The notes under the pieces were generated by a model. The model saw only the letters and a list, made by a program, of their open reading frames with translations, made no database searches and was not told the DNA's origin. A stretch of 64,000 nt of DNA from an uncultured Rikenellaceae bacterium (GTDB taxonomy: Bacteria; Bacteroidota; Bacteroidia; Bacteroidales; VadinHA17). Location of the stretch: assembly GCA_964389685.1 (NCBI GenBank), contig CAYMFM010000001.1:71089-135088 (forward strand), in the 5' to 3' direction. A program made the position numbers and the translations under genes. Shown here in pieces: positions 23,936 through 51,342 of the stretch (position 1 is the first letter of the stretch; each line of letters begins with the position of its first letter).

Positions 23936-25729
23936 ATGAAAACAATAATCTATTATTTGATATGCATCACACTGGTTTTTTCAGCCTGTGATCCCATGGA
24001 TGATATCCTGGATGAACTCAATGAACTGAATAAAGAATATGTGGGTGAAGCTACCTATACTCTCATCAGTGATGATTATGAAACCATAGCCGATCTGGCC
24101 CTCTATGCAGATTCCAATGATGTTGTCAATGCCAGCTTTATAGAAACAAACGAATATTTCTGCGACACGGTATCCGCTTCAAAATACATACCTGCACTCC
24201 TGTCAAACTTGTTTCCGGCATTTGGTAAGAACTCGGTTGCAACCATCACCTATAACTTCTATGATGGGTATCCTGGCTATTTAATGGGTTATGTCCAGGC
24301 TCCGTTTTATGAAGTGGCTTCTGAAGACTATCAAAGCGTTGGTGGTTCAGTGGAAGAGTATGAGTTTTTCCTTCCCGGCGATGAACCGGAGGATCATCTT
24401 CCGGGCATATTGATTAGTCAATTTCCAGACGCAGTTGATGGGGATATGGTGCTCGTTGAATGTAAGTATTCACCGGTTATACCAACCGGACCTGCCGAAA
24501 ACATCCTTTTTGAGGATGACTTTGAAGATGATGACCAGCTACTCAAGTGGACGGCATACAGTGTAGTGGGGGACCAGGTTTGGTCCCATTCAAGTTACAG
24601 TGGGAACAGTTTCGTAAAAATATCCGGTTATTATGATGGCGGGAACCACCTGAATGAGGATTGGTTGATCACTCCTGCGATTAACCTGGATGATACAGAA
24701 AATGAAATATTCACGTTTTCTACTATGTGTAATTATGCAGGCCCGGTTCTCGAAGTCAAATACTCATCCGATTATACAGGACCAGGGGATCCCTCAACGG
24801 CAACATGGACAGACTTTACCGGATATTCATTATCAGAAGGAGGATTTGAACTGGTTGAATCCGGTGAAATCTTCCTGGATGCCCTGACAGGATCAATTAA
24901 CATTGCTTTCGTATATACATCCACTGATGCTGAAAGTAAAACATGGGAAGTGGATGATGTAAAGGTCAAAACGGAATCCGATATTAGCTACAACACGGTA
25001 TATGATATCTACCAATTCAACGGGACCACCTGGTCCCCGGAAGAAGATCTGTTTGTTCTGGACTCGGATGAATACGATGCAATGGGAGATCCAGGGAAAT
25101 ACGATAACTTCTCGTCCAGTGAACCACCGGAAAACTATTTACCCCAGTATTTAAATGCACATTTACCCTATGCACAGGAAGAAGATAAAGTTGCGGTAAT
25201 GTACCGGTATTATGCGGGAACAACCATCTGGAAAGCCGATGAATATTCTGTTTCAGGAGGGCAATGGACAATGTACAAGCCCATAATCGAGCAATCCAGC
25301 CAGTTTATCCAGAATGGCGAGAAATGGGTGTTTGACCCAACCGTGATGTTTAGCCTGGTTTCTTCCGATTATCAGATAATCGTGGATTATGTTAATAACA
25401 ATGTCGATCCGGAATACGTGGATAGCTATGGTACCAGTGAATCATACTTTGGCGCAAGCGCCTATTATGGGAATTTTGATATCCGCCCGGGTTACCATGA
25501 ATTCGACCCTGAATCCTGGGAGGAAGCTCTCAAGGAAGCCATTGGAACAGCCCTGTTACCAGTCAAGTTCCCAAATGCTGTCACACAGGTGGAGGGTGTC
25601 GATGTTTATTATGTTGCCACCTTTGCTACCTATAGTGGTTCTGATGGTACTTATTCCATTACATTCCAATGCACTAAATCGGGGCCGGATCCCGAATTTA
25701 CGTACATAGAAGGACCGACTCCAAAGTAG
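23936..25729 (+). CDS. surface lipoprotein of unknown function, acidic (possible choice-of-anchor-J-like module), partner of the upstream TonB-dependent receptor
   Basis: Lipobox LVFSACD. It starts 32 bp after the receptor. The central segment FEDDFEDD...KWTAYSVVGDQVWSHSS...FVKISGY...NEDWLITPAINL resembles choice-of-anchor J/MAM-like modules. Confidence 0.45.
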   Translation: MKTIIYYLICITLVFSACDPMDDILDELNELNKEYVGEATYTLISDDYETIADLALYADSNDVVNASFIETNEYFCDTVSASKYIPALLSNLFPAFGKNSVATITYNFYDGYPGYLMGYVQAPFYEVASEDYQSVGGSVEEYEFFLPGDEPEDHLPGILISQFPDAVDGDMVLVECKYSPVIPTGPAENILFEDDFEDDDQLLKWTAYSVVGDQVWSHSSYSGNSFVKISGYYDGGNHLNEDWLITPAINLDDTENEIFTFSTMCNYAGPVLEVKYSSDYTGPGDPSTATWTDFTGYSLSEGGFELVESGEIFLDALTGSINIAFVYTSTDAESKTWEVDDVKVKTESDISYNTVYDIYQFNGTTWSPEEDLFVLDSDEYDAMGDPGKYDNFSSSEPPENYLPQYLNAHLPYAQEEDKVAVMYRYYAGTTIWKADEYSVSGGQWTMYKPIIEQSSQFIQNGEKWVFDPTVMFSLVSSDYQIIVDYVNNNVDPEYVDSYGTSESYFGASAYYGNFDIRPGYHEFDPESWEEALKEAIGTALLPVKFPNAVTQVEGVDVYYVATFATYSGSDGTYSITFQCTKSGPDPEFTYIEGPTPK

Positions 25730-28725: not shown

Positions 28726-28757
28726 ATAAAAAACCCGGAATAACCTCCGGGTTTTTT
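28726..28757. terminator. bidirectional rho-independent terminator between convergent nrdJ and the kbl-like gene
   Basis: Stem ACCCGGA / TCCGGGT, flanked by an A-run on the left and a T-run on the right. Confidence 0.65.
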
Positions 28758-28767
28758 GATGTAAGAT

Positions 28768-30015
28768 TTACAATCCATATTTTTCGATAATCTCCTGTTT
28801 CGTCAATCCCAGAATACCATATTTTTCCCCAATTTTCACAAAGGCTTCCAGGGCTTTGTCCAGGTGATGGATCTCATGCCCGGCAGAGATCTGTGTGCGG
28901 ATCCTTGCCTGACCATTGGGAACAACGGGAAAGAAAAAGCCAATGGCATAGATTCCTTCGTTGTACAGATCCTTTGAGAAGTCCTGTGAAAGTTTCGCAT
29001 TGAACAGCATGACCGGGACGATGGGTGTATCTCCTTCTTTCAATACAAAACCTGCCTCCGTCAGACCTTTTCTCCAGTGCTTCGTGTTGTTTTCCAATTT
29101 ATCCCGGAGTTCGGTGCTTTTTGAAAGAATTTCCAGCACTTTCAGCACTCCGGAAACCACAACCGGAGCAATGGTATTGGAGAAGAGGTAGGGACGGGCT
29201 TTTTGCCTGCACATCTCCACCAGCTCTTTTCTGCCTGACACGCATCCCCCGGAAGCTCCTCCAAGAGCTTTCCCAAAGGTGGTGGTGATGATATCAACAT
29301 TCCCCAGAACGCCACATTTCTCATGTGTTCCCCTTCCGGTTTTACCGATGAAACCGGTGGCGTGTGAATCATCGACAAACAGCATGGCACCATATTTATC
29401 ACAAAGTCCGGCCATCTCATCAAGCTTTGCCGTATCCCCATCCATCGAAAAGACACCGTCGGTAATGACCATTTTAAACCGTTTGTCGGCATGGAGCTGC
29501 AATTTGCTTTCCAGGTGCTCCATGTTCGAGTGTTTAAACGTGTCATGCATGGCACTGCACAATCGGATCCCATCGATGATGGAAGCATGTACCAATCGGT
29601 CAGAGATCATAACATCCTGGTCCGATAAAACGGCTTCGAAAACTCCTGCATTGGCATCCATACAGGAAGGGAAAAGAATGGTATCTTCTGTTCCCAGAAA
29701 TTGGGTCATGCGGTTTTCAAGTTCCCGGTGGATATCCTGTGTCCCGCAGATAAACCGTACAGATGACATGCCATAACCCCTGGTATCTAGCCCTTCGTGG
29801 GCAGCTTTCACCACATCAGGATGGCTCGATAGACCAAGGTAATTATTGGCGCACATGTTGATTACTTTCTTCAGGGAAGACCCTGTGGGGAATTCAACCT
29901 CAATATCCGCTGCCTGGCTGGAATGGATAAACCGTTCTTCCTTGAAGATCCCGGCATTTTTTATCTGATCAATCTGATCCAGATAAATTTTTCTAATTGT
30001 TTCACTATAACTCAT
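28768..30015 (-). CDS. Kbl-type alpha-oxoamine synthase, diverged second copy (PLP-dependent acyltransferase)
   Basis: 415 aa. [12 protein letters not shown], Kbl-specific [21 protein letters not shown]-lysine motif [16 protein letters not shown] and PVVPNGQARIRTQISAGH. It differs from orthodox Kbl at VMISDRLVHASIIDG (Kbl has [15 protein letters not shown]) and has an extra C-terminal tail of about 15 aa. Confidence 0.8.
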   Translation of the reverse strand: MSYSETIRKIYLDQIDQIKNAGIFKEERFIHSSQAADIEVEFPTGSSLKKVINMCANNYLGLSSHPDVVKAAHEGLDTRGYGMSSVRFICGTQDIHRELENRMTQFLGTEDTILFPSCMDANAGVFEAVLSDQDVMISDRLVHASIIDGIRLCSAMHDTFKHSNMEHLESKLQLHADKRFKMVITDGVFSMDGDTAKLDEMAGLCDKYGAMLFVDDSHATGFIGKTGRGTHEKCGVLGNVDIITTTFGKALGGASGGCVSGRKELVEMCRQKARPYLFSNTIAPVVVSGVLKVLEILSKSTELRDKLENNTKHWRKGLTEAGFVLKEGDTPIVPVMLFNAKLSQDFSKDLYNEGIYAIGFFFPVVPNGQARIRTQISAGHEIHHLDKALEAFVKIGEKYGILGLTKQEIIEKYGL

Positions 30016-30108
30016 GGATAGATTATGGTTTGATTAAAACAGACTGGGTAGAACAATCCTGCCATAGGACACTGGAACCTGGTTCTCTGTCAGGATTTTA
30101 ATTTGTGA

Positions 30109-30354
30109 TTATCCGGTAAATTCCCGGATCAGGGTAACAATCTTATTGACTGAATCAAAAGCTTCAGGTGTTGCTCTATCGTCCGGGATGCTAATTGAGT
30201 ATTTGTTCTCCAGGAAACGTTTCAGGGAAACCATTGAAAACGAATCCACAATACCTCCGGAGATGAGAGGTGTATCGTATGCTATCTCCTCGTCGTCTTC
30301 CTCAAGGTATTCCTCAATTACATAGCTCAGGACAACATCTTTTATCTCTTCCAT
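30109..30354 (-). CDS. stand-alone acyl/peptidyl carrier protein
   Basis: 81 aa and acidic. The phosphopantetheine attachment motif GGIVDSFSMVSL (Ser38, codon 30241-30243) is closer to DltC-like LDSMGTV than to FAS ACP DSLD. Confidence 0.7.
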   Translation of the reverse strand: MEEIKDVVLSYVIEEYLEEDDEEIAYDTPLISGGIVDSFSMVSLKRFLENKYSISIPDDRATPEAFDSVNKIVTLIREFTG

Positions 30355-30395
30355 TTTTACGCTGTTTAAGTTAATAAATCATTTGTGTCTGTCTG

Positions 30396-32102
30396 TTATT
30401 CATCCTCTTCAAGGGTGGAGGTATCGCCAATCTCTTCCCCCCACTCTTTTGCATGAAGGATACGCCTCATAATTTTCCCGCTCCTTGTTTTCGGTAGTGT
30501 GTCCATGTATTCAATCTCCTGGGGCATGGCAAGGGGAGATAATTTCTTCCGGATGAAATTCATGATCTTCAGTTCAAGTTCATTGTTTGGTTCAAATCCG
30601 GGTTTCAGCGTAACGAATGCTTTAACGACCTCCATATTTACATCATCCGGTTTTGCCACTACAGCCGACTCGCTGACTGCTTCATGTTCCAGCAGAGCCG
30701 ATTCCACTTCGAATGGACTTACCAGGTGTCCGCCGGTATTGATAACATCATCGTCCCTGCCGATGAACCAGAAATAACCATCGCTGTCGAGGCTTGCCCT
30801 ATCGCCGGGCAAATACCACCCCTTTTTGAATTTCTTCCTGAACATCTCATCGTTGTTCCAATAGGTTCTCATCATGGCAGGCCATCCCGGTTTGAAAGCA
30901 ATTAATCCCACTTTCCCGGGTTCGGTAAAGGGTTCAAATGTTTTCGGATCCACAACCGTACCGGTAATTCCAGGGAATACCTTACCCATGGATCCCGGTT
31001 TTACTTTCATTCCCGGGAAATTGGTGATCATAATCGATCCGGTCTCGGTCTGCCAGTAAGAATCCAGAAATGGTTTGTTAAACACCTTTTCCGACCACAG
31101 AACAGCTTCTGCATTGAGGGGTTCTCCAACGCTGGCAAGATGACGAAGAGTACTCAGATCGAACCGTTTAACCAGTTCATTTCCTGCTTTCATCAACGAG
31201 CGGATTGCTGTGGGTGCGGAGTACCAAACCGATATGTTGTATTTTTCAATGAATCGATACCAGGCTTCAGCAGAAAACCCGGTATTGAGCACAGCCTGTG
31301 TGATCCCCATGCTCCATGGACCGATGATCCCATACGATGTCCCTGTAACCCATCCCGGATCAGCAGTACACCAATAGATATCATCTTCCTGGAGATCCAG
31401 GACCCATTTGGTTGTAAGGTATTGAGAGATCAGTGAATAATGGACGTGTTTTACTCCCTTGGGCTGCCCGGTTGTCCCTGATGTATAATGCAGTACAGAA
31501 GGGGATTCTGACTTTGTTGGAAAAATCTCAAATTGATCCATCGGTTCAGCATCTTCAAGTGAAAAAGCAACTTCATTTTTCTGAAGTGGTTTCCGGTCAT
31601 CATAGTCAACAATAATGATATGTTCCAGCGATGGCAGAAGATCCACGATTTTTTTAACTTTTGACAGATGCTTACGCTGTGTTATGATAGCCCGTGTCTG
31701 AGCGTTCTCAAGCCTGACATGGAGTGATTCATCACCGAAAGCAGAAAAGAGAGGTTGTACGATGGCTCCAATTTTCAGCACACCAAGAAATGACAGATAA
31801 AGTTCAGGTATGCGTTCCATAAAGAGGCATACCCGGTCCTCCTCTTTTATTCCCAGATTTCGCAAAAAAGCACCGATGGTATTGCTGGCCACCCGGATAT
31901 CATTGAATGTAAACTGTTTTTCATTCCCGCCAAAACCTTCCCAGAAGAGAGCCACCCTGTCTCTTTTGCCCTGCAGGCATATCCTGTCGGAACAGTACCA
32001 GCCAATGTTAATGATATTTCCATCGGAATAGTCTAATTCCTTCTCTGCAATGGACCAGTCAAATGCTCTGATCCTCTCATTATAAGCGCCAATATTTGCC
32101 AT
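30396..32102 (-). CDS. AMP-forming adenylating enzyme, acetyl-CoA-synthetase (AcsA)-like
   Basis: 568 aa. HYTSGTTGQPKG, YWQTETG (Acs WWQTETG-like), GDRASLDSDGYFWFIGRDDDVINTGGHLVSPFEVE, and C-terminal PKTRSGKIMRR. Confidence 0.8.
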   Translation of the reverse strand: MANIGAYNERIRAFDWSIAEKELDYSDGNIINIGWYCSDRICLQGKRDRVALFWEGFGGNEKQFTFNDIRVASNTIGAFLRNLGIKEEDRVCLFMERIPELYLSFLGVLKIGAIVQPLFSAFGDESLHVRLENAQTRAIITQRKHLSKVKKIVDLLPSLEHIIIVDYDDRKPLQKNEVAFSLEDAEPMDQFEIFPTKSESPSVLHYTSGTTGQPKGVKHVHYSLISQYLTTKWVLDLQEDDIYWCTADPGWVTGTSYGIIGPWSMGITQAVLNTGFSAEAWYRFIEKYNISVWYSAPTAIRSLMKAGNELVKRFDLSTLRHLASVGEPLNAEAVLWSEKVFNKPFLDSYWQTETGSIMITNFPGMKVKPGSMGKVFPGITGTVVDPKTFEPFTEPGKVGLIAFKPGWPAMMRTYWNNDEMFRKKFKKGWYLPGDRASLDSDGYFWFIGRDDDVINTGGHLVSPFEVESALLEHEAVSESAVVAKPDDVNMEVVKAFVTLKPGFEPNNELELKIMNFIRKKLSPLAMPQEIEYMDTLPKTRSGKIMRRILHAKEWGEEIGDTSTLEEDE

Positions 32103-32219
32103 AAAGCTTCAAGAAAATGGTGATTTTGAAAGGAACACAAGGTAGCACTAATTTGGTAAAAGTCGGGTATCTGACCTCCAGTTTTTCATCTTTTCTACAA
32201 CACATAAGGGTCTGCAACG

Positions 32220-33437
32220 TTACCGGCATTTCCCATTTTTAATCCAATCTTTCCTGATTTTTGCAAAAGTATCTATGGCATACCGGATATGTTCGGTGGT
32301 ATGTGCTGCACTGATCTGGACCCGGATTCTGGACTTCCCCTTGGGAACAACCGGATAGTAAAAACCGATAACATAGATACCATTGTCCAGCAGTTCGGAT
32401 GCAAGTTCCTGTGATAATTGGGCATCGTTGGGAAGGTGTCCCAGCATGATGGGAACAATGGGATGGGTTCCGGGTACAATGGTATAGCCGGCATCGGTCA
32501 CTCCTTTTCTGAATAACATGGTATTCTCCATGAGCTTGTCCCTCAGGTCGTTGGTGGCAGAGAGCATGTTCAGTACTTCAAGGGTTGCTCCCACAATGGG
32601 AGGGGCAAGGGAATTGGAAAAAAGGTATGGTCTGGAGCGCTGCCGCAGCATATCGATGATCTCCTTCCTGCCGGATACACAACCACCGGAGGCTCCTCCA
32701 AGCGCTTTACCGAAGGTGGTCGTGATCAGGTCAATCCGTCCAAGGGCATTACAATATTCAGCACTTCCTCGTCCGTTCTTGCCAATAAAACCGGTAGCAT
32801 GAGAATCATCAACACATACCAGGGCGTTATATTTCTCAGCCAGATCACAGATCTTATCGACCCGGGCAATGATCCCGTCCATCGAGAAGACACCATCGGT
32901 TACGATTAATTTGAATCTTGCCTGTTCACATTCGGGCTGTTTTAACTGTTCTTCCAAATCAGCCATATCGTTGTTTATGTAACGAAACCGATTGGCTTTG
33001 CAGAGGCGTACACCATCGATGATGGAAGCATGATTCAATTCATCCGAAATGATGGCAGATTCGGATCCGAGCAACGGTTCAAACACTCCGCCGTTCGCAT
33101 CAAATGCCGAGGAGTAGAGGATCGTGTCTTCAGTAACAAGGAATTCCGACATCTTCTGTTCTAATTCTTTATGAATATCCTGTGTTCCGCAAATGAAGCG
33201 AACAGAAGACATGCCAAATCCATGATTGTCGAGTGTCCTTTTTGCTGCCTCAATGACACGCGGATGAGACGATAACCCGAGGTAATTATTGGCGCAAAAA
33301 TTCAGCACCTTTAATCCCTTTTTCGTTTCAATCTCAATTCCCTGGGGAGTGGTGATGATCCTTTCCTCTTTATAGAGACCTGCTTCTCTTATTGCAAGCA
33401 GCTCCTTTTTTAAATGATCTTTAAATTTACTATACAT
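32220..33437 (-). CDS. kbl: glycine C-acetyltransferase (2-amino-3-ketobutyrate CoA ligase)
   Basis: By eye it aligns along its full length with E. coli Kbl: [93 protein letters not shown]. It lies immediately downstream of tdh. Confidence 0.88.
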
Positions 33438-33515
33438 AGATTTTAATGGTTTTCCGATGGAGCAAGTACAAATAAGATTCTTCTTTTGTCACGTAACCCC
33501 CAGCAGCACATCGCA

Positions 33516-34541
33516 TTACTCCCACCGTAGAATAACCTTACCACTATCTCCACGTTCCATGGCATCAAATCCTTTCTGGAATTCGTTGACATCAAGCCGG
33601 TGAGTAATGACGGGTGAAATATCCAACCCGGAAATAAGCATCTGTTCCATTTTATACCAGGTTTCAAACATTTCCCTGCCATAAATGCCCTTCAGATGCA
33701 ATGCTTTAAAAATGATTTTATCCCACTGGACAGTGGTATGATTTGGTAGAATGCCAAGCAGTGCAATTTTCGATCCGTTGTACATGTTTTCAATCATCTC
33801 TTCAAAAGCACTTGGCGAACCGGACATTTCCAGTCCAACATCAAATCCCACCATTCCCAACGCTGTAATGGTATCCTTAATTTTTTCTCCTTTTGACGGG
33901 TTAACGGTCATGGTAGCACCAAGCTGTTTAGCGATCTCTAACCTGGCATCGCTCAGGTCGCTTACAACGATATACCGTGCACCCGCAAAGCGGCAGATAG
34001 CCACTGCCATGCTGCCAATCAAACCGGCACCGGTGATCAGAACATCTTCCCCGATCACGGGAAAAGAGAGGGCAGTATGGGTTGCGTTTCCGAAAGGATC
34101 CATGATGGAGGCCAGCTCGTCACTGATCCTGTCATCCACTTTAATCACGTTCTCTGAAGGAAGGACCAGGTATTCTGCAAATGCACCGTCGCGGTGGACA
34201 CCGATGCCGATGGAATTCTGGCATACATGTTTTTTCCCTCTACGGCAATTCCTGCAGTGCCCGCAGGCAATATGTCCTTCTCCCGTGACCCGGTCACCGA
34301 TATGAATGTTTTTAACCCCCGATCCGATTTTATATACAGTTCCCATGTATTCATGCCCAATGGTCATGGGTGTTTTTATGGTTCGCCGGGCCCAATCATT
34401 CCAGAGATAAATGTGAAGATCCGTTCCACAGATTGCGGTCTTCCGGATTTTGACCATGACGTCGTTAATCCCTACTTCGGGAATGGGGACATCCTCCATC
34501 CAAATACCCTTTCCGGGTTTGGATTTTACCAGAGCTTTCAT
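33516..34541 (-). CDS. tdh: L-threonine 3-dehydrogenase
   Basis: [45 protein letters not shown] parallels the E. coli Tdh N-terminus. Zn-ADH motifs GHEYMG and [10 protein letters not shown] are present. The ORF track extends to 34631, but the ATG at 34541 matches family starts. Confidence 0.9.
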
Positions 34542-34742
34542 TTTTCCCATAGTACATGCAAGATGTGATGTGTTATTGCTGATCGAATTTCCAGATGATA
34601 ATCTCCCGGGAATCCAACCCGAAATTAACATAATTCTTCTGTAAAAAAAATGAAATTTGATCAGAACCTGTCAGGCAAATCGACCTTCTCAAAAAGGGCC
34701 CAAATGAAACAAAATAGTTGGAGGGGGTTTCATAGATCTGAC

Positions 34743-37387: not shown

Positions 37388-40300
37388 ATGTTATCCATTA
37401 GAAAAATATCCATTATTGCACGCTTTGAGATAAAAACCCTCCTAAGAAGCTGGTTTTTTCGGATTTTCGCGGGACTCTCCCTGGTTATCCTGATCTTTTT
37501 TGATATTGCCGGCATCACGGAAGTTGGTGAGGGAATCTGGTTAATCAGGGGAATTCCAGCCAATATTCCATTGGGTAATCTGTTTATGCTGAATATTGCT
37601 CAGGCAATTATTGCTGCTTTCCTTGCAACCGAGTTCCTGAAACGGGATCATAAACTGGATACCACCGAAGTCGTTTACATGCGATCCCTGAGCAATAGTG
37701 ATTACGTGCTTGGCAAGACCCTTGGAATATTAATTGTGTTTTTCCTGTTAAACTTCCTGGTATTAGCCATTGCAGCGGTCATGAACCTGACAAACCCGAA
37801 TATTGCTTTCGATTTGCAGGCGTACCTTATCTATCCTGTCATCATTTCACTTCCCACGCTGATTTACATTTTGGGGCTCTCCTTCCTGTTGATGATCCTT
37901 ATCAGAAACCAGGCCGTAACCATCGTTGTGTTGCTTGGTTATATTGCATCCCTGCTTTTCTATCTGGGTAAGAAATTCTACTTCCTCTTTGATTACATGG
38001 CATTCTCCTATCCCCTCATGAAATCTGATTTTGTTGGTTTTGGCAATACCCTTGAGATGGTTGCACAACGGGGCATCTATTTTTGCCTGGGATGCAGTTT
38101 CATCTTTTTAACCATCATCCTGTTTAAACGGCTGCCCCAGTCCAGAATCATGACCCGGGTATCATGGGTTGCCATGATCCTCCTTTTTGTGGCTGCCGGT
38201 TTGCTCGTTAAGCTTTACATGGATCCCATTTCTCAAGGCAAAAGATTGAGAGAAAACATGGTAGCCCTGAATAATGAATACGTGGATGATCCAACGGTTA
38301 CAGTAACACATTGTGACCTGAACCTGATACACAAAAAAGAGAAGATTGAGGTAACGGCCAGACTTAAATTTGTGAATAACACAGGAGTGGCTATCCGGGA
38401 GTATCTTTTCACCTTAAACCCGGGGTTGGAGGTCCTGGAAGTTTCTCGTAACGACGATTCATTATCGTTTGAACGGGATCTGCACCTGGTGCGGATTCAA
38501 CCAGAAAGCAACCTCTCACCAGGGGCAGAGGATTCACTGATCCTGCGGTATCAAGGGGTAATTAATAACCACGCATGCTATCTGGATATTGATGAATCCA
38601 TCCGGTCCGGTGAATTACGGCTGGATATGCTAACCGTGCATCGCAGGTATTCGTTCGTAACCCCTGAATACCTTCTTCTGACAGGTGAACTTTTGTGGTA
38701 CCCTGAAGCCGGGGTAAATTATTGCTCCACCATCCCGGGCTATCACAGAACAACCTTTGTGAAGTATACGTTAACGGTATCTTCTGATAAACACCTTGAA
38801 GCATTTTCTCAGGGTCAGATGAACCGTATGAGTGATGGAGTCTTTCATTTTGTCCCGGAAAATCCTTTATCCCGGTTATCTCTGGTGATCGGAAAGTATA
38901 TCCGGCGAACCATATCGTGTGATTCGGTTGAATATAACCTGATGACACTGCAGGGTCATGATTACTTTGAACCCTATATGAATGAGCTTGGTGATACACT
39001 CATTCCGGTGATCCGGGAGCTCAAACAGGATTATGAACGGGAAATAGATTTGCCCTATCTATTCCCAAGATTCTCCCTGGTGGAAGTGCCCATCCAGTTT
39101 ACATCGTATCCCAGGTTTTGGACCATGAGCCAGGAAACGGTTCAGCCGGAAATGGTCTTTCTTCCTGAAATGGGACTACCCATATGGCAGGCAGATTTTA
39201 AAGCAGGATTAGACCGGCAGAAAAGAAATGCCGAGAGAAATAACCAGGTTATATCTGATAAAGAGCTCCAGGCAAAGCTGCTGGGTCAGTTCATTCGTGC
39301 CATTATCACAACAGGGAACCAGGAAACATGGTTCTATGGGGGAAACATCGGATATGGAAGAAGCGCCTATTCCATATACCCCAATTATTGTAATTATGTG
39401 TACTATATTAAATCAGAGAGCTGCCCCATTGTCAATATGGCACTGGAATCTTACCTTGATAAAGGGGCTGCAGAATCTAATGATTTCTGGAGCAGAAACT
39501 GGCGTGGATTAAGTGATGAAGAGACAGCCAACCTTGCCCTGCAGGAAAATAGCTTCGACCAGATCCTTCTTGATCCGGAAGAAAACGAGGTGATTTACCA
39601 TGTAATCCGGCTCAAAGGATTTTACCTCTTTACCCTGCTGGAAAGTAAAATTGGAGCGGAACAATTTAAAAAATCATTGTTGTCTCTGCTTGGAGAGCAC
39701 TCATTTGAATCCCTGGAACTGGAGAAACTTGGCCAGGCCTTCCAGAAGGAGTATTCACTGGATGTCCAAACCCAGGTAGATGACTGGTTCAAAAGCGATC
39801 AATTACCCGGATTCCTGATTGGTGGTTTGGAAAGCTACGAATTCATTGACGGTGACCGAACCCGCTACCAGGTCCGGTTTAAGGCATCCAATCCGGAACC
39901 GGTTGAGGGATTGTTCATGTTGAGCTTCAGGACAGGAGATAGTGAAGGTGACCCTAAGTATTACAGCGGGAGCGGGTATTACAGCGGGCCACAGGGAAGC
40001 GATGAAACTGCAAGCAAGATAATTTATCTTGAACCGGGACAAACCAAGGAGATCGGAGCAGTCCTGGATGCCCAACCCCGATCATTGACCATCAATTCTG
40101 TGATTTCACAGAATATTCCATCCATCATTGATTTTAACTTTGGTGAAAATGAAGTAAATCGCAGGGCATCAGCATTTGATGGAGAACGAGTACTCCGGTC
40201 AGATTTCTCTTTTGAGAATCCGGATGAAATTATTGTTGACAATGAAGACCCTACCTTTGAACTGGTTGAAGCCTATACGGACAGTTATTTGAGGAAACTG

Positions 40301-40747
40301 GTTAAGGAGCATTCCAAAACAGAGGAACAAAAATATACCGGAGTTCGCTGGTGGAGACCTCCAGTGAATTGGCAGACCATTACACAATCGGGGTTCTATG
40401 GTAAATACATCCGCTCCGCAGTGTATACCAAATCAGGATCCGGGGAGAATAAAGCAATCTGGAAAACACCAATAGAGGAGGAGGGATTTTATGATGTATA
40501 TTGTCACATTGGTGATGCAACGGGCGTCTTATACACGGACCGAAACCAGCAGAATGCGAAATACCATTTCAAGGTTTTTCATGATGAAGGAATAGAAGAA
40601 ACCATTATGGAACTTCAAAACAGCGAGAATGGATGGAATTTCCTGGGGACCTATTTCCTCTCATCCGATACGGCAAAAGTGGAGATGTCAAACGACTCCG
40701 AAGGAAGAATGGTCGTTGCCGATGCCATAAAATGGGTGAAACAATAA
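37388..40747 (+). CDS. ABC-2-type permease (7 predicted TM) fused to a large extracytoplasmic M1-aminopeptidase-like domain lacking HExxH, plus a C-terminal beta-sandwich-like module
   Basis: N-terminal 280 aa contains 7 hydrophobic helices and an ABC-2-like segment TTEVVYMRSLSNSDYVLGKTLG. Residues ~295-390 (VTHCDLNLIHKKEKIEVTARLKFVNNTGVAIREYLFTLNPGLEVLEV...LILRYQG) resemble the M1 peptidase N-domain. There is no HExxH anywhere in the 1119 aa. The last ~130 aa (GFYDVYCHIG...AKYHFKVFHDEG...NGWNFLGTYFLSSDTAKVEMSN...VVADAIKWVKQ) match the pattern I associate with golvesin-C-terminal-like domains. Confidence 0.6.
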   Translation: MLSIRKISIIARFEIKTLLRSWFFRIFAGLSLVILIFFDIAGITEVGEGIWLIRGIPANIPLGNLFMLNIAQAIIAAFLATEFLKRDHKLDTTEVVYMRSLSNSDYVLGKTLGILIVFFLLNFLVLAIAAVMNLTNPNIAFDLQAYLIYPVIISLPTLIYILGLSFLLMILIRNQAVTIVVLLGYIASLLFYLGKKFYFLFDYMAFSYPLMKSDFVGFGNTLEMVAQRGIYFCLGCSFIFLTIILFKRLPQSRIMTRVSWVAMILLFVAAGLLVKLYMDPISQGKRLRENMVALNNEYVDDPTVTVTHCDLNLIHKKEKIEVTARLKFVNNTGVAIREYLFTLNPGLEVLEVSRNDDSLSFERDLHLVRIQPESNLSPGAEDSLILRYQGVINNHACYLDIDESIRSGELRLDMLTVHRRYSFVTPEYLLLTGELLWYPEAGVNYCSTIPGYHRTTFVKYTLTVSSDKHLEAFSQGQMNRMSDGVFHFVPENPLSRLSLVIGKYIRRTISCDSVEYNLMTLQGHDYFEPYMNELGDTLIPVIRELKQDYEREIDLPYLFPRFSLVEVPIQFTSYPRFWTMSQETVQPEMVFLPEMGLPIWQADFKAGLDRQKRNAERNNQVISDKELQAKLLGQFIRAIITTGNQETWFYGGNIGYGRSAYSIYPNYCNYVYYIKSESCPIVNMALESYLDKGAAESNDFWSRNWRGLSDEETANLALQENSFDQILLDPEENEVIYHVIRLKGFYLFTLLESKIGAEQFKKSLLSLLGEHSFESLELEKLGQAFQKEYSLDVQTQVDDWFKSDQLPGFLIGGLESYEFIDGDRTRYQVRFKASNPEPVEGLFMLSFRTGDSEGDPKYYSGSGYYSGPQGSDETASKIIYLEPGQTKEIGAVLDAQPRSLTINSVISQNIPSIIDFNFGENEVNRRASAFDGERVLRSDFSFENPDEIIVDNEDPTFELVEAYTDSYLRKLVKEHSKTEEQKYTGVRWWRPPVNWQTITQSGFYGKYIRSAVYTKSGSGENKAIWKTPIEEEGFYDVYCHIGDATGVLYTDRNQQNAKYHFKVFHDEGIEETIMELQNSENGWNFLGTYFLSSDTAKVEMSNDSEGRMVVADAIKWVKQ

Positions 40748-46626: not shown

Positions 46627-49600
46627 ATGAAATTTATTGTACATAGGAAAACGCTGATCAGCATGTTGTTCATTGGATTAACCTTGCTGGGTTATATATC
46701 CTATAAACACCTCCCGGTTGAGTTGATCCCCAATGCAGAACTCCCTGTGTTGATTGTGAACGTGGCAAGCCCGCTTGAGGTTGATCCGAAGTACATGGAA
46801 AATGCAGCAGTGATCCCCCTGGAAGGGGTGATCGGTTCCCTGGAAGGAATAGAAGAGATTGAATCTACCGCCAGTTCGAGAAGGGGAGTCATCTACATCT
46901 CATTTTCCCAAAAAACAAACATCAAATACGCATACCTGAAATTGCAGGAACGGGTTGAAGTCATAAAGCCAACCCTCCCGGAAGGATTTTATGTCCAGGT
47001 GGTAAAGATTGATATAGAACAGCTATCCAATCAATTCATGGGATTACAGGTGCGGGGCAGTGGAGGTACAGACCGGGTTCGGAACGTGGTGGACCAGGAA
47101 ATCAAACCCGAACTGGAGAATGTGGATGGAATTGCCAGTGTAGAGGTGTTTGGCGGGAGAGAAAAATCGATCGAGATTATCCTGGATGAAGAGGCATGCA
47201 GAGCCCATGGAATCTCTCCGTCACAGGTTAGAAATCTGCTTTCTCAAAGCACAAAAAGCAAAACCTTTGTAGGGGATGTGGTCGAGAATAACCGCCGGTA
47301 TTTCGTGAATGTAACAGCAGAGTATCTTGAGATAGATGATATTCAAAACCTGGTAGTGGATGGCAGGGGCCCCATCTTGCTAAAAGACGTTGCTGAGATC
47401 TTCTTTGGTGTTAAAGAAGAATCATCCTATAGCCGGGTCAACGGAAAAGAAGCCGTTACCATCCAACTCGTCAGGGACCTGCAGGTGAACATGATCGATC
47501 TCTCCCACAGAACCAACGAGGTGATTGAAAAACTCAACCATGATCTGCGCTCAAAAGATATTGAAATTGTTATCCAGAATAATATGGCAGAGACTATGGA
47601 GGAGAATATCAACCTCATCATCCGGCTTGCTCTCATTGGAGGATTGCTGGCCATCTGTTTACTCTGGATCTTCCTTAAAAACCTCCGGTTGGTGGTTACC
47701 GTTGCCCTTGCTATTCCCATATCGGTATTTACGGCATTTAACTTCTTTTATGCTTTTAACATTTCATTAAACAGTTTAACCCTGGTGGGAATGGCCCTTG
47801 CCATTGGTATGCTATTGGATAACAGTGTTGTTGTGCTGGAAAGTATATATCGTATCGCAACCAGGAAAAAAGATGTTGACAAAATAGTGCTACAGGGGAC
47901 AAAGGAAGTATGGCGTTCGATTTTTGCTGGAACCCTTACCACGATGGCGGTTTTTCTACCCTTCCTTTTTGCATCGAACTTTCTCATCAGCCTGCTGGGG
48001 AAACACGTGGGTGTCTCGATCATCTCAACGCTGGGTGTCTCCCTTCTGGTAGCCCTTCTGCTCATCCCAATGACATCCCACTTCTTCCTTAAAAAAGGAT
48101 TGCAGAAAGGGAAGTTGAGGTTCCAGACCTTATCGTCAGATAACCGGCTGGTAAGGATCTATATTGTTTTGCTTAAAGCCTGTATGCGTTTTCCTGCAAG
48201 AACGATCATCGGAGCTGTTTTCCTCTTTTTCATTGCGGTTTTTATTAGCCTGGCAATAAGCATCAGTTCCGTGCAGGAAGTGGATACACCGGAATTTAAC
48301 CTCTATGTAACCATGCCGGGTGGTGCTACCCTGGAAACAACCAACCATATCGTGGAGCAGATTGAAGAAAACATCGAGACCCTGGAAGAGAAAGGTGATG
48401 TAATCAGTAAGGTGTATGAGGAGGAGGCCATTGTGACAATCAATTTGCAGGAAGATTATGAGAAAATCGGTGAACGGACTTTGGCTCAGATAAAACGGGA
48501 GATAAAGGACCGGGTTAGTGATATCCGGGCTGCTGAAATATCATTAGACAGACCCTCTTCAGGGTATGGCGGTGGGGGTATGACGGGTGGAGATCCGGGT
48601 GGCGGATTCGAACGGTTGCTTGGCATCGGCACAGAGGAGGAAAAGGTGTTGATCAAGGGACAGGATTTTGAGCGCATGCGGAATGTTGCCGAAGATGTCA
48701 GGTACTTCCTGGAAAGTCTCTCTTCAATAAACTCCGCATCCATGAGCATTGCCGATAACCGGCCGGAGATCCATATCACCTTCGACCAGCATATCCTGAG
48801 TCAGTATGGTATATCCCTGGCTTCAATCGCAAATGAACTGAATTCTTTCCAGAGCGAATTTTCATCCGGTATTACATTCAAACAGGGGGGTGAGGAATAC
48901 GATATCATCATTAAAAACAGGGCTGAGGAGGAGACACAACCCATGACCATGGATGACCTGAAGCAACTTTCAATACAGGGGGCAAGCGGCAGCAGCTATG
49001 AACTGGAAAACCTGGGGGATATAATCTATGCAACAGGTAACAGTGAAATCAACCGGGTGAACCAGGAAAAACAGATTGAGGTCCGTTACCAGTTTATTCC
49101 GGAAATGCTGGACTCAAAGTCGCTGCTTACTGCTGCAAGACTCGAAATCGACCAGATGGTTGCTGCTCTGCCAATTCCTGCAGGAGTGGCTATTGAGGTG
49201 TTTCATGAGGAGAATGAGTTGAAGGACTTCTATTTCCTGATTCTCGCAGCAATCATATTGATTTACATGATACTGGCAGCCGTATTTGAATCCTTATCAA
49301 CTCCTGTGGTCTTAATGTTCTCTATTCCCCTTGCTGCCATCGGATCCCTCATTGCCCTGATCCTGACAGGAAACTCCCTCTTTAATGCAAATACACTCAC
49401 GGGATTTCTGATCCTGCTGGGGGTGGTGGTGAATAACGGTATTATACTGATCGATTATTCCAGGATCCTCCGACAGCAGGGATTTAACCGGTCCAGAGCC
49501 CTCATGATGGCAGGGCTGGCACGCATCAGACCCATCTTGATCACTGCAGTCACCACCATTGTAGCTATGCTTCCCCTTGCCATGGGGAAGGCAGAATACG

Positions 49601-49700
49601 TAACATCCATCGGAGCTCCGTTTGCCATAACGGTGATCGGAGGATTATCGCTGAGTACCCTGCTTACACTGTTGTTTATTCCAACGTTTAATACCGGACT
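46627..49700 (+). other. RND permease module of the fusion protein (12 TM, two large periplasmic loops)
   Basis: TM4 ALAIGMLLDNSVVVLESIY (D398 N399 at 47818-47823), TM10 LLGVVVNNGIILIDY (N936 N937 at 49432-49437), and TM11-12 IRPILITAVTTIVAMLPLA...LSTLLTLLFIPTF. Confidence 0.8.
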
Positions 49701-51342
49701 CTCCAATGCCCTAACCTGGCTGAATAACCTGGATTGGAAAGAGAAAACAATACAACTTGTTGTATTTGCACTGTTTGTCGCGCTCATTTTTCTTCGGATT
49801 GACCGGGTTGTTATGAAACTTCTTTGCCTGTTTTTGATCATCATATTGATCCCGGGGCTGACCTATTTTGTAAAAACAAGCCTCCGGCAGGCAAAATCAA
49901 AACTCATAGAAGAGAGAGATCCCATAATGATAAAAATCCGAAGCCTGGTTAAAGTGTATGACAGGGATAGCCGATTTATCAGGGAATGGAAGGCTGCACT
50001 GCGAAAAAGAAAAGCCACAGATGGAGAAGAAGCGATGACCCGAAGGCGGTTATTTGAAGATCTGATCTGGCAGATGCCCCTGTTAGGCTTCCTCCTCTAT
50101 TTCACCTATTTTTACCTGGAGAGCAAGTTCTGGTTTTTTGTAATGCCTCATATTATCTTCCTTTTCTTCTTCCCGGTTTGGAAACCGGTCAGTATCTTTT
50201 TAAAGGAACGCTCAAAGGAGAAGAAAAAAGCATTCATTAAGCGGATTCAGAATGTTTTTTTAAAGATGATTTACTGGGGCTTCCCGATGCTGAACCTGAT
50301 TCTTTTCCAATTGCGGTGGGATAACCTCATCCTGGTTGTTTTTATCGCAATCTTCTGGTACCTGTTGCTGGGCATTTATGCTATTTCCGATAAGATACAC
50401 CGGGAAGAAATCAATATTTACAGATTGACCGGTAAATTCAAACGGCTCAGAACCAGTCTATACAGGCTGGTGGTTGCCATACCACTGATTGGGCGAAGGA
50501 GGAAGCCTTTTCGTGCTCTTGATGGAGTAACCCTTGAAATTGGAAAGGGAATGTTCGGATTGCTTGGACCGAATGGTGCCGGGAAAACAACCCTCATGAG
50601 AATCATTTGTGGGATCCTGGAACAAAGCTATGGCAAAGTGACAATCAATGGATTTGATACCCTGGAAAAGAGAGAAGAGCTGCAGGGACTGATTGGATAC
50701 CTGCCACAGGAATTCGGCATGTATGAAAACATGACGGCATACGAATTTTTGAACTACCAGGCAATGCTTAAAAACCTCATTGACAAAGAGAAAAGAGAAG
50801 AAATGGTGAATCATGTTCTCTCGTCAGTCCATATGGAAGGGCACAAGCATGAAAAGATCTCCTCTTATTCCGGCGGTATGAAACAGCGAATCGGCATCGC
50901 ACAGATCCTGTTGCACCTGCCACGAATACTGGTGGTGGATGAACCGACTGCCGGATTGGATCCGAGGGAGAGGATCCGGTTCCGAAACCTGCTGGTGGAA
51001 CTTAGCCGGGAAAGGGTAGTCGTTTTTTCAACCCATATCATTGAAGATATTGCCAGTTCATGCAATATGGTCGCCGTTCTGGACCACGGGAAGCTGAAAT
51101 ACCTTGGTGAACCATCAAAAATGGCAAAGATTGCAGAAGGACACGTCTGGCAATTCCAGGTTTCAGCAGAAGCATTTCACCAATTGCAACAAGAACTGCT
51201 GATCGTTCATCACATGCAGGATGGTGATCAGATCAGGGTCAGATGTGTGGCCGAGAAAGCACCGGTACCGGATGCGAAACCGGTGAAAGCCCTGCTGGAG
51301 GATTCATACCTTTACCTGTTGAAAGGAAACACTGAAGCCTAA
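46627..51342 (+). CDS. RND efflux permease fused C-terminally (via extra TM helices) to an ABC ATP-binding domain
   Basis: A continuous 1571-codon ORF. Residues 1-~1030 form a full RND permease, residues 1041-1082 add two extra TM helices, and residues 1100-1571 form an ABC NBD interrupted by a 4-TM insert. See the sub-features and findings. Confidence 0.85.
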   Translation: MKFIVHRKTLISMLFIGLTLLGYISYKHLPVELIPNAELPVLIVNVASPLEVDPKYMENAAVIPLEGVIGSLEGIEEIESTASSRRGVIYISFSQKTNIKYAYLKLQERVEVIKPTLPEGFYVQVVKIDIEQLSNQFMGLQVRGSGGTDRVRNVVDQEIKPELENVDGIASVEVFGGREKSIEIILDEEACRAHGISPSQVRNLLSQSTKSKTFVGDVVENNRRYFVNVTAEYLEIDDIQNLVVDGRGPILLKDVAEIFFGVKEESSYSRVNGKEAVTIQLVRDLQVNMIDLSHRTNEVIEKLNHDLRSKDIEIVIQNNMAETMEENINLIIRLALIGGLLAICLLWIFLKNLRLVVTVALAIPISVFTAFNFFYAFNISLNSLTLVGMALAIGMLLDNSVVVLESIYRIATRKKDVDKIVLQGTKEVWRSIFAGTLTTMAVFLPFLFASNFLISLLGKHVGVSIISTLGVSLLVALLLIPMTSHFFLKKGLQKGKLRFQTLSSDNRLVRIYIVLLKACMRFPARTIIGAVFLFFIAVFISLAISISSVQEVDTPEFNLYVTMPGGATLETTNHIVEQIEENIETLEEKGDVISKVYEEEAIVTINLQEDYEKIGERTLAQIKREIKDRVSDIRAAEISLDRPSSGYGGGGMTGGDPGGGFERLLGIGTEEEKVLIKGQDFERMRNVAEDVRYFLESLSSINSASMSIADNRPEIHITFDQHILSQYGISLASIANELNSFQSEFSSGITFKQGGEEYDIIIKNRAEEETQPMTMDDLKQLSIQGASGSSYELENLGDIIYATGNSEINRVNQEKQIEVRYQFIPEMLDSKSLLTAARLEIDQMVAALPIPAGVAIEVFHEENELKDFYFLILAAIILIYMILAAVFESLSTPVVLMFSIPLAAIGSLIALILTGNSLFNANTLTGFLILLGVVVNNGIILIDYSRILRQQGFNRSRALMMAGLARIRPILITAVTTIVAMLPLAMGKAEYVTSIGAPFAITVIGGLSLSTLLTLLFIPTFNTGLSNALTWLNNLDWKEKTIQLVVFALFVALIFLRIDRVVMKLLCLFLIIILIPGLTYFVKTSLRQAKSKLIEERDPIMIKIRSLVKVYDRDSRFIREWKAALRKRKATDGEEAMTRRRLFEDLIWQMPLLGFLLYFTYFYLESKFWFFVMPHIIFLFFFPVWKPVSIFLKERSKEKKKAFIKRIQNVFLKMIYWGFPMLNLILFQLRWDNLILVVFIAIFWYLLLGIYAISDKIHREEINIYRLTGKFKRLRTSLYRLVVAIPLIGRRRKPFRALDGVTLEIGKGMFGLLGPNGAGKTTLMRIICGILEQSYGKVTINGFDTLEKREELQGLIGYLPQEFGMYENMTAYEFLNYQAMLKNLIDKEKREEMVNHVLSSVHMEGHKHEKISSYSGGMKQRIGIAQILLHLPRILVVDEPTAGLDPRERIRFRNLLVELSRERVVVFSTHIIEDIASSCNMVAVLDHGKLKYLGEPSKMAKIAEGHVWQFQVSAEAFHQLQQELLIVHHMQDGDQIRVRCVAEKAPVPDAKPVKALLEDSYLYLLKGNTEA
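49747..49872 (+). other. two additional predicted TM helices (hairpin) following RND TM12
   Basis: TIQLVVFALFVALIFLRI (res 1041-1058) and VVMKLLCLFLIIILIPGLTYFV (res 1061-1082), followed by the basic segment KTSLRQAKSK. Confidence 0.6.
49924..49968 (+). other. first beta-strand segment of the fused ABC NBD
   Basis: IMIKIRSLVKVYDRD aligns with MKISINQLNKIYKNG at the N-terminus of the free NBD (36434). Confidence 0.55.
49969..50508 (+). other. ~180-aa insertion with four predicted TM helices inside the NBD
   Basis: Helices LIWQMPLLGFLLYFTYFYL, FWFFVMPHIIFLFFFPVW, VFLKMIYWGFPMLNLILFQL and LILVVFIAIFWYLLLGIYAI. The flanking and central loops are Lys/Arg-rich (KAALRKRKA, KERSKEKKKAFIKR, GKFKRLRTSLYR...GRRRKP), which is consistent with a cytoplasmic location. 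Confidence 0.55.
50509..51342 (+). other. core of the fused ABC NBD plus C-terminal accessory domain
   Basis: FRALDGVTLEIGKGMFGLLGPNGAGKTTLMRI (Walker A at 50566-50589), GYLPQEF, YSGGMKQRIGIAQ, ILVVDEPTAGLD and FSTH. The C-terminal AEGHVWQFQV... is paralogous to AKGHVFLIQA... of the free NBD. Confidence 0.85.

Follow-up and report, generated by a model that had tools for sequence, protein, structure and literature searches.

A conserved ligase, carrier protein and Kbl-type synthase proposed to act as one unit in threonine, glycine and acetate metabolism of uncultured bacteria

We analyzed a 64,000-nucleotide stretch of DNA (the window) from an uncultured Rikenellaceae bacterium (assembly GCA_964389685.1, contig CAYMFM010000001.1, positions 71,089 to 135,088 of the forward strand), in which tdh and kbl stand in one operon with genes for an AMP-forming ligase, a small carrier protein (CP) and a second alpha-oxoamine synthase (AOS) of the Kbl type, here called AOS415. 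We consider it probable that the ligase, CP and AOS415 make up one conserved three-protein unit that performs the Kbl reaction with a protein-bound pantetheine thiol of its own in place of coenzyme A (CoA) and couples it to ATP and AMP, a scheme that does not depend on the direction in which the reactions run. Taken as a whole, our explanation is the best that we can offer and is held tentatively. In the proposed mechanism a phosphopantetheinyl transferase (AcpS in most relatives, encoded elsewhere for the window) would convert apo-CP to holo-CP at Ser38. The ligase would interconvert acetate, ATP and holo-CP with acetyl-S-CP, AMP and pyrophosphate (PPi), and AOS415 would interconvert acetyl-S-CP and glycine with 2-amino-3-oxobutanoate (AKB) and holo-CP. 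Tdh would connect AKB with L-threonine (NADH/NAD+), while Kbl would connect it with acetyl-coenzyme A (acetyl-CoA). The role of CP as the shared acyl acceptor and donor, acetate and glycine as the substrates, and all kinetic properties are the parts of this scheme that we infer from the sequences. The preliminary description of this DNA had proposed that a carrier-fed AOS unit, made up of the ligase, the carrier and the second AOS, is tied to threonine metabolism; this core idea was supported, since the trio is invariant in at least eight phylum-level lineages, an AcpS gene lies adjacent to it in most of the testable loci and Tdh of two non-homologous types occurs with it.

The operon consists of five co-directional minus-strand genes and a terminal hairpin, as had been described, and the protein motifs quoted in that description (37 and 15 letters) were all present as written. 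The features are:

tdh, 33516-34541, minus strand: Zn-dependent (MDR-type) L-threonine 3-dehydrogenase, 341 aa (NF003808, 537 bits, cut-off 380)
kbl, 32220-33437, minus strand: canonical, CoA-dependent glycine C-acetyltransferase, 405 aa (TIGR01822, 642 bits, cut-off 493)
ligase gene, 30396-32102, minus strand: Acs-derived, AMP-forming ligase, 568 aa (NF003313 acetate-CoA ligase, 752 bits, cut-off 729)
CP gene, 30109-30354, minus strand: carrier protein, 81 aa (PF00550, 22.3 bits, cut-off 20.8)
AOS415 gene, 28768-30015, minus strand: second AOS, Kbl-type, 415 aa (TIGR01822, 573 bits, cut-off 493)
hairpin, 28728-28757, no strand: bidirectional, intrinsic-terminator-like, with a 13-pair stem flanked by an A-run and a T-run

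The cluster is bordered by a convergent class II ribonucleotide reductase gene on one side and by the divergent gltX on the other, with the hairpin lying between the AOS415 stop codon and the reductase gene. The intergenic gaps in the order tdh-kbl-ligase-CP-AOS415 were 78, 117, 41 and 93 bp, so the 117-bp and 93-bp sizes reported earlier were correct. Internal promoters had been suggested for these two gaps; a sigma-70-like scan of both found none, the scan being one that does not cover Bacteroidota promoters and is unsuited to them. A search of the window and seven related loci against Rfam gave no riboswitch or leader match. The two AOS paralogs of the window, the kbl product and AOS415, were 56% identical, and the ligase further matched PF00501 and PF13193. 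The tdh product aligned with NF003808 over residues 1-341 of 341. We noted that the tdh frame is open for another 90 bp in the 5' direction, to an in-frame ATG at 34631, which is probably not the start, as the alignment to the family model begins with the Met at 34541. The JGI gene call for tdh gives a 344-aa product starting at 34550.

Conservation of the ligase, CP and AOS415 genes

Our genome survey covered one genome per species, searched for the CP, and gene neighborhoods were taken from the best 80 loci. The CP was encoded in at least 586 species-level genomes. More than 8000 CP relatives were present in the protein collection; the best 120 of them were 78-100% identical and, where a source was named, came from Zixibacteria, Cloacimonas, KSB1, Bacteroidales and Acidobacteriota. 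The best 80 loci were all from metagenome-assembled genomes, as was every related locus with an organism label, there being no cultured host among them. By label these 80 loci were distributed as follows:

Aminicenantes/Acidobacteriota: ~29
Bacteroidota: ~24
Delongbacteria: 7
bins labelled 'Eubacteriales': 7
Zixibacteria: 5
unclassified: 5
Ignavibacteriales: 1
Cloacimonadales: 1
Bipolaricaulota: 1

The order ligase-CP-AOS415 was kept in Bacteroidota, Zixibacteria, Acidobacteriota, Cloacimonadota, Delongbacteria, KSB1, Ignavibacteriales and Bipolaricaulota. AOS415 was encoded directly 3' of CP in 70 of the 72 testable loci and the ligase directly 5' of it in 64 of 69, the exceptions being mainly frameshifted long-read assemblies. 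Median gaps within the module were a few tens of bp, and wherever a ligase gene was found the CP gene began 12-207 bp downstream of it. This recurrence of the trio order in essentially all 80 loci exceeds chance. The conserved core is the trio, while tdh and kbl are variable accessories. The earlier proposal that the unit had been grafted onto threonine catabolism thus held for the link to threonine, while a graft onto tdh-kbl is not the best description of the trio. Likewise, synteny, which had been put forward as a check, bore out the order of the three genes, but the full arrangement of the window (Zn-type tdh, kbl, no AcpS) occurred only in two close Bacteroidales relatives, the loci L026 and L060. 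In these two and in the window the Zn-type tdh-kbl pair stands where AcpS is found elsewhere. L060, labelled Rikenellaceae, was the closest relative among the loci examined, with proteins 88-96% identical to those of the window.

Across lineages the trio proteins were 70-89% identical and synonymous sites were saturated. The AOS415 genes of nine lineages were all exactly 415 codons long, with protein identities of 81-89%, while their four-fold degenerate third positions were only 8-52% identical and the GC content of third positions (GC3) ranged from 0.25 to 0.95. Recent horizontal transfer as the source of the cross-phylum identity was rejected, since the four-fold sites have diverged to this extent and GC3 tracks each host. 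The low four-fold-site identity and the host-like GC3 indicate that the similarity is old and has been kept by very strong purifying selection. Such extreme conservation is suggestive of several tight protein-protein interfaces. AOS415 is among the most conserved proteins that these phyla share, which implies a strongly selected function and probably many protein partners.

Sequence features of AOS415, CP and the ligase

AOS415 passed both Kbl equivalog models (TIGR01822 with the score given above, and NF005394 with 570 bits against a cut-off of 460) and failed the serine palmitoyltransferase (SPT) models, which gave 231-307 bits against cut-offs of 500-670. The listed homologues that carry a public name are all called glycine C-acetyltransferase or 2-amino-3-ketobutyrate CoA ligase. 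We compared 74 distinct AOS415 sequences with 37 Kbl sequences. By identity clustering, as distinct from a rooted tree, AOS415 formed its own tight cluster outside the Kbl clade, with a mean identity of 82% inside the cluster. AOS415 was 52-54% identical to every Kbl group, whereas Kbl proteins of different phyla were 57-63% identical to one another, and 55% of columns were at least 97% invariant in AOS415 as against 32% in Kbl. The pyridoxal phosphate (PLP) lysine K249, the stacking and catalytic H143, and the motifs DDSHATG, ARIR (carboxylate-binding; ARIRTQ) and CANNYLG (CANNYLGLS) were invariant in all 74 sequences. Since the PLP-, glycine- and carboxylate-binding residues are all kept, the glycine/AKB chemistry of AOS415 should be unchanged.

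The clade also carries invariant changes of its own, namely S109P, F112M, A128V, N135V, E160H, L264C, S268A and H325T in E. coli numbering; in the numbering of AOS415 itself, V142 and H157/D158/T159 are clade-specific. Further extras are a conserved insertion of 5 aa (residues 41-45) and a tail of ~13 aa at the C-terminus. Five residues that are basic in the 37 Kbl sequences were neutral in the 74 AOS415 sequences (K147S, R150H/Q, R152T, K362Q and K364Q), and Y151D accompanied them. The kbl product of the same operon served as an internal control: it was on average 61% identical to the E. coli-type Kbl structures, has its PLP lysine at K244 and retains all five basic residues (K147, R150, R152, K362 and K364). 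In a gap-free alignment that used the sequence of Rhodobacter capsulatus 5-aminolevulinate synthase (ALAS) from a PDB alignment, K156 of that enzyme fell on Kbl R150 and AOS415 H157. ALAS K156 lines the adenosyl pocket for CoA and hydrogen-bonds the ribose of succinyl-CoA (PMC4615937). We infer that AOS415 has lost the CoA nucleotide site and has adapted to a pantetheine that is borne by a protein.

The 81-aa open reading frame (ORF) is predicted to encode a dedicated phosphopantetheinyl carrier protein similar to DltC and to peptidyl carrier proteins (PCPs). It contains the motif GGIVDS38F with the predicted attachment serine S38 (codon 30241-30243). GGIVDS38FSM was invariant in 16 CP sequences, and 47 of the 81 CP columns were invariant across phyla, between which CP identity was 72-85%. 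The nearest solved structures included the type II PCPs PltL and PigG as well as DltC. In a low-confidence AlphaFold model (predicted local distance difference test, pLDDT, of 67) helices were predicted at residues 3-16, 35-52 and 69-80, which would put Ser38 at the N-terminus of the second. The CP failed the model TIGR00517 for acyl carrier proteins (ACPs) of the fatty acid synthase (FAS) type, with 28.6 bits against a cut-off of 70. We also considered whether CP could be the ACP of the OlsHI ornithine-lipid pathway and rejected this, as its best NCBIfam match, NF052616 (ACP_for_OlsHI), reached 64.6 bits against a cut-off of 130. According to the paper on the OlsHI pathway, OlsH needs no ACP.

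The ligase matched the 572-aa AcsA-type structure 9g79, which we take to be B. subtilis AcsA, with an E-value of 2e-170 and ~47% identity. The residues of its acetate pocket, V252/T253/V325/W350, equal V310/T311/V386/W414 of Salmonella enterica Acs. V252, T253 and V325 were kept in 73 of 73 orthologues and W350 in 69, with Phe in the other four, and the A10 lysine, K543, was conserved. The ligase also has an invariant basic patch, R518-K519-K520. A long-chain ligase model gave 293 bits with the module ligase, against a cut-off of 476. The conservation of the pocket, together with the linkage to the SatP channel described below, makes acetate the most likely acid. The preliminary description had judged that the sequence does not reveal the substrates, a view that is too pessimistic, since the acetate pocket, SatP, and the Kbl residues and equivalog score of AOS415 point to acetate, glycine and AKB.

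The arginine of the A8 motif (R526 in S. enterica Acs) was replaced by leucine in all 73 module ligases (L460 in the window, codon 30723-30725). It was present in 9g79, 8rpk and S. enterica Acs, and in P0241 and P0242, which represent the nearest AcsA-like clusters. R526 of S. enterica Acs is described as highly conserved, as important for the thioester-forming step and as stabilizing the conformation for it (PMC10455477). In an exhaustive search of 1.84 billion cluster representatives the nearest other ligase clusters were just 45-49% identical to the module ligase. The change from Arg to Leu was rejected as a mark unique to the module, since it is common to roughly a dozen other Acs-like clusters at 50% identity. 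In these comparisons it defines a broader lineage derived from Acs. Three of the four lineage clusters that we examined (P0246, P0247 and P0262) adjoin a 77-82-aa carrier protein and an MBOAT/DltB-like protein; the fourth, P0245, lies in a polysaccharide cluster in which no CP was found. Two CPs of such Dlt-like loci were homologous to that of the window (29% identity, E-values of 5e-10 and 5e-6), with the common motif PLxSxGxxDSF. The presence of carriers beside three related clusters, and the homology of CP to those carriers, argue that the ligase-CP pair belongs to a lineage of carrier-loading ligases, and we regard this as the strongest available evidence that the CP would be acylated by the ligase.

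The Dlt-like loci, in which an Acs-derived ligase takes the place of DltA, are L096:129-4630, L100:6001-11524 and L101:2634-6963. Their ligases have GHL as the A8 motif and Phe at the position of Acs W414, where the module ligase has Trp; the module ligase is 45-46% identical to those of L096 and L100 and 41% identical to that of L101. L096 and L101 contain an extra ORF of ~40 aa ending in F-x-Y-x-x-F, an ending that presumably likens it to DltX. The three loci may encode a carrier-dependent O-acylation system for an envelope polymer. Another relative of the ligase outside the window, the AcsA-like P0243 (49% identical), is split by an intein that bears a LAGLIDADG homing-endonuclease domain.

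Accessory genes, direction of the reactions and other explanations

The AOS, AcpS, Tdh, Pat-like and porin-like partners of the trio came from an all-against-all clustering of the ORFs of the first 89 loci, and SatP was found afterwards. The simple ORF caller gave spurious antisense ORFs in high-GC loci, which made up one cluster and were disregarded. Of 62 loci that could be tested, 42 had a gene for an AcpS-type phosphopantetheinyl transferase immediately upstream of the ligase gene, as a rule at a distance of 14-23 bp. The two ORFs overlap by 8-38 bp in a few loci, and a related protein from outside the window, P0344, is a 643-aa ORF with an AcpS domain (residues 4-65) and a ligase segment 66% identical to the module ligase; this could be either a real AcpS-ligase fusion or an artefact of a frameshift or of gene calling. 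A second AOS lay beside the module in ~39 of 80 loci; of the 33 loci with complete flanks, 22 had one. It was mostly a canonical Kbl, 60-79% identical to the kbl product of the window; in Zixibacteria and Ignavibacteriales it was divergent, ~33% identical and below all curated cut-offs.

A Tdh of the SDR type (PDB 7ol1, E-value 5e-121) accompanied the module in Zixibacteria, Acidobacteriota, Ignavibacteriales, Cloacimonadota, KSB1 and some Bacteroidales, while the unrelated Zn-type Tdh was found in the window, L026 and L060. The exchange of one Tdh for another that is non-homologous but has the same activity is good evidence for threonine/AKB chemistry as part of the module. Directly after AOS415, a SatP/AceTr acetate channel (PF01184, E-value 1e-40) was encoded in 20 loci of three phyla (Aminicenantes, Bacteroidales and Cloacimonadota), with identities of 73-79%. 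The minimal complete operon, Tdh-AcpS-ligase-CP-AOS415-SatP, occurred in Cloacimonadota without Kbl.

A Pat-like protein of ~900 aa (PDB 9isq, E-value 1e-158), in which an ADP-forming acyl-CoA synthetase (ACD) domain is joined to a GNAT domain, adjoins the module in ~17 loci (for example L004:11639-14359, L045:13180-15867 and L067:13003-15771). All 17 full-length copies keep the ACD phosphohistidine motif SHTG, which the crystallized Pat proteins 9isq and 9it0 do not have. Judged by this motif, the ACD domain fused to the GNAT may be active, and the GNAT could be an off-switch for the ligase. A protein of ~440 aa with a signal-peptide-like N-terminus and no Pfam match is encoded at L070:2940-4256 on the minus strand and at 17 other loci. 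It adjoins the SatP or the Pat-like gene in Bacteroidales and Aminicenantes loci, is 45-76% identical between them, and is provisionally called porin-like from its sequence pattern. At L007:5817-6536 (Acidobacteriota), a 239-aa protein with a bacterial-microcompartment (BMC) shell domain and a sigma-54 activator are encoded just upstream of an operon of SDR-Tdh-AcpS-ligase-CP-AOS415, and BMC homologues lie near the module also in L015 and L019. ORF clustering in the first 89 loci gave no conserved neighbor naming a consumer or a pathway beyond the partners listed here.

Whichever way the reactions run, a private carrier would be of use, since its ratio of acetyl to thiol can be pushed far away from the ratio in the CoA pool. 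We weighed thermodynamics, SatP, the Pat-like protein and host ecology for the direction of flux, and none was decisive. Forward operation, in which acetate is activated and passes through AKB to threonine, is slightly favored over the reverse, as a possibility that we put forward with reserve. We lean this way because the lineage of the ligase normally loads carriers and because the accessories, a channel and a Pat-like GNAT, resemble those of acetate-utilization operons. AOS enzymes other than Kbl run in the direction of condensation. The mirror image of an ATP-yielding reading, a CoA-independent synthesis of threonine in which ATP drives the joining of glycine and acetate, would be about equally novel.

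Several points weigh against our preferred reading. A forward ligase combined with a cleaving Kbl would amount to a net acetyl-CoA synthetase, and the module would be pointless. To our knowledge Tdh and Kbl are catabolic in every organism studied, and the hosts are fermentative anaerobes, both of which favor the reverse direction. Tdh was found within 10 kb in only about one-sixth of the loci, and no phosphopantetheinyl transferase (AcpS) gene was found within the 64-kb window. The ligase passes the NCBI acetate-CoA ligase cut-off and keeps a basic residue equal to Acs R584, so that use of CoA is possible. The meaning given to the lost basic residues of AOS415 depends on homology with ALAS and not on a Kbl-CoA structure, and the AlphaFold model of CP, at a pLDDT of 67, was too poor for a fold search.

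The alternative that survives best keeps the same architecture and runs it backwards, as an energy-conserving branch of threonine fermentation with Kbl as a parallel exit to acetyl-CoA; we regard it as somewhat unlikely. Tdh would convert threonine to AKB, AOS415 and holo-CP would cleave AKB to glycine and acetyl-S-CP, the ligase would use AMP and PPi to release acetate and ATP, and SatP would carry the acetate out. The catabolic roles of Tdh and Kbl suit this direction, as does the descent of AOS415 from Kbl with its non-decarboxylating active-site residues kept. The hosts (Cloacimonadota, Aminicenantes, Zixibacteria and Bacteroidales) are uncultured, come from metagenomes and are taken to be anaerobic fermenters; SatP-family proteins are acetate anion channels, which suits efflux. 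The Pat-like proteins, with SHTG kept in 17 of 17, may be active acetate- and ATP-forming enzymes. There is also a precedent in the AMP-forming Acs of Syntrophus aciditrophicus, which makes ATP from acetyl-CoA, AMP and PPi (PMC4992975, PMC13404658). On the other hand, every known adenylate-forming carrier-protein ligase loads its carrier, including the Dlt-like relatives of this one; Kbl and an ACD would already yield ATP, so that a second route would have no clear benefit; and a GNAT regulator is easier to rationalize for an enzyme that consumes ATP. That the module is a new form of substrate-level phosphorylation, in which the energy of C-C cleavage of AKB is kept as acetyl-S-CP and then recovered as ATP from AMP and PPi, is doubtful in our estimate. 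If it were true, anaerobes with a PPi economy would gain a CoA-independent route from threonine to glycine, acetate and ATP.

It is quite improbable that acetyl-S-CP, whether formed by the ligase from acetate or by Tdh and AOS415 from threonine, goes to an unlinked consumer such as an envelope MBOAT O-acetyltransferase. The ligase and CP are indeed homologous to pairs encoded beside MBOAT proteins, but neither an MBOAT nor any other candidate was conserved within 10 kb in the 80 loci, and the partners that are conserved (the second AOS, Tdh and SatP) all handle AKB or acetate. A specialized metabolite is very improbable as the product. Here CP would carry another short acid, which would undergo a decarboxylating condensation with a different amino acid to give an aminoketone, a pyrazine precursor or a lipid head group. 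Such a role could explain the invariant AOS415 changes near the active site (N135V, F112M, S109P and A128V in E. coli numbering), and carrier-fed AOS enzymes are typical of lipid and natural-product pathways (PMC9386255, PMC9304779). However, the acetate pocket is intact and SatP is linked, AOS415 passes the Kbl equivalog score with its glycine- and carboxylate-binding residues intact, and conservation of 81-89% across phyla is unlike secondary metabolism. The unusual lipid head group and special aminoketone that had been envisaged earlier were unsupported, as we found no long-chain features and no lipid or tailoring genes conserved nearby, and a pyrazine precursor would form only as a spontaneous by-product. 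Least probable of all is an ordinary Acs with a redundant, CoA-dependent Kbl isozyme and an incidental, unrelated or housekeeping ACP: the NCBIfam equivalog cut-offs for Acs and Kbl are passed and public annotation names AOS415 as a plain Kbl, but the trio order is invariant across phyla at saturated synonymous sites, the module has a dedicated AcpS next to it, CP keeps 72-85% identity between phyla and scores far under the FAS-type ACP models, the ligase lacks the A8 arginine and groups with carrier-linked ligases, and AOS415 lacks five basic residues that the kbl product of the same operon retains.

Three other regions of the window contained genes of note. At 46627-51342 on the plus strand, a 1571-aa ORF combines a complete AcrB/RND transporter (PF00873, residues 2-1021) with an ABC ATPase domain at its C-terminus (PF00005, residues 1299-1442); it is preceded by an OEP gene, a gene for an HlyD-type adaptor and a gene for a normal AcrB of 1044 aa. 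RND pumps run on proton-motive force, and a fusion to an ABC ATPase is hence unusual. A multi-pass membrane protein of 1119 aa with a C-terminal Golvesin_C domain is encoded at 37388-40747 on the plus strand and adjoins an ABC ATPase gene. Downstream of a TonB-dependent receptor gene, at 23936-25729 on the plus strand, is the gene for a lipoprotein-like protein of 597 aa that had no Pfam match.

Comparison with known systems

The module shares its AKB chemistry with Tdh-Kbl threonine cleavage (E. coli kbl-tdh; 1fc4, 7bxp), and a genuine tdh and kbl stand in the same operon. It would differ in that the proposed thiol partner of AOS415 is the 81-aa CP instead of CoA, with the acetyl thioester made or consumed by an AMP-forming ligase. 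AOS415 itself differs from Kbl as a separate and far more conserved clade, with the 5-aa insertion, the C-terminal tail and the loss of the five basic residues. The citrate lyase and malonate decarboxylase systems hold an acetyl thioester on a private ACP and have their own ATP-dependent acetate:HS-ACP ligase (CitC, which works with CitD). They are thus alike as anaerobic catabolic systems that work on a private acetyl-ACP with its own ligase; however, they are not known to be homologous, use another prosthetic group, and have a ligase that merely re-activates the carrier outside the stoichiometric cycle.

Acs under lysine-acetylation control by Pat/AcuA resembles the module in its acetate pocket, its A10 lysine and the Pat-like GNAT that is encoded adjacent in ~17 loci. 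It differs in that the predicted acceptor of the module ligase is CP and that its A8 arginine is a leucine. The DltA-DltC-DltB(-DltX) D-alanylation system and the Dlt-like loci L096, L100 and L101 are further relatives, the latter sharing with the module the homology of ligase and CP and the A8 change from Arg to Leu. In the Dlt-like loci, however, the carrier would hand its acyl group to a membrane MBOAT for an extracellular polymer, whereas the partner in the module is a soluble PLP enzyme. Acs1 of S. aciditrophicus is comparable as an AMP-forming Acs that is able to run towards ATP (PMC4992975, PMC13404658).

Both precedents that had been named in the preliminary description are real: the bacterial SPT of Caulobacter and Rhodobacteria, which has a dedicated ACP and an acyl-ACP synthetase (PMC9386255), and the sulfonolipid AOS of Alistipes, which uses acyl-ACP (PMC9304779). 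As proposed for the module, an adenylate-forming ligase there loads a dedicated carrier that feeds an adjacent AOS. Those systems use long-chain fatty acids in a decarboxylating condensation with serine or cysteate at the start of lipid synthesis. For the module, in contrast, we predict acetate and glycine as substrates, a reversible Kbl-type AOS that does not decarboxylate, an Acs-derived ligase and a place in central metabolism.

Our full-text literature searches found no description of a ligase-CP-AOS415 module. If confirmed, AOS415 would be the first Kbl-type enzyme to use a carrier protein, and the ligase would represent an Acs-derived family of acetate:carrier-protein ligases that serves Dlt-like envelope-acylation systems too. 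The module would then be either a new ATP-conserving step of fermentation or a new route to threonine. With the plain annotation as Kbl and Acs, a CoA-independent link between threonine, glycine and acetate that is coupled to ATP and AMP would be missed when metabolism is reconstructed for Cloacimonadota, Aminicenantes, Zixibacteria and many Bacteroidales. The nearest known logic is that of the SPT-ACP-synthetase trio and the sulfonolipid AOS, and what is new here is the C2 class of substrate, the reversible Kbl-type AOS, the Acs-derived ligase and the setting in central metabolism.

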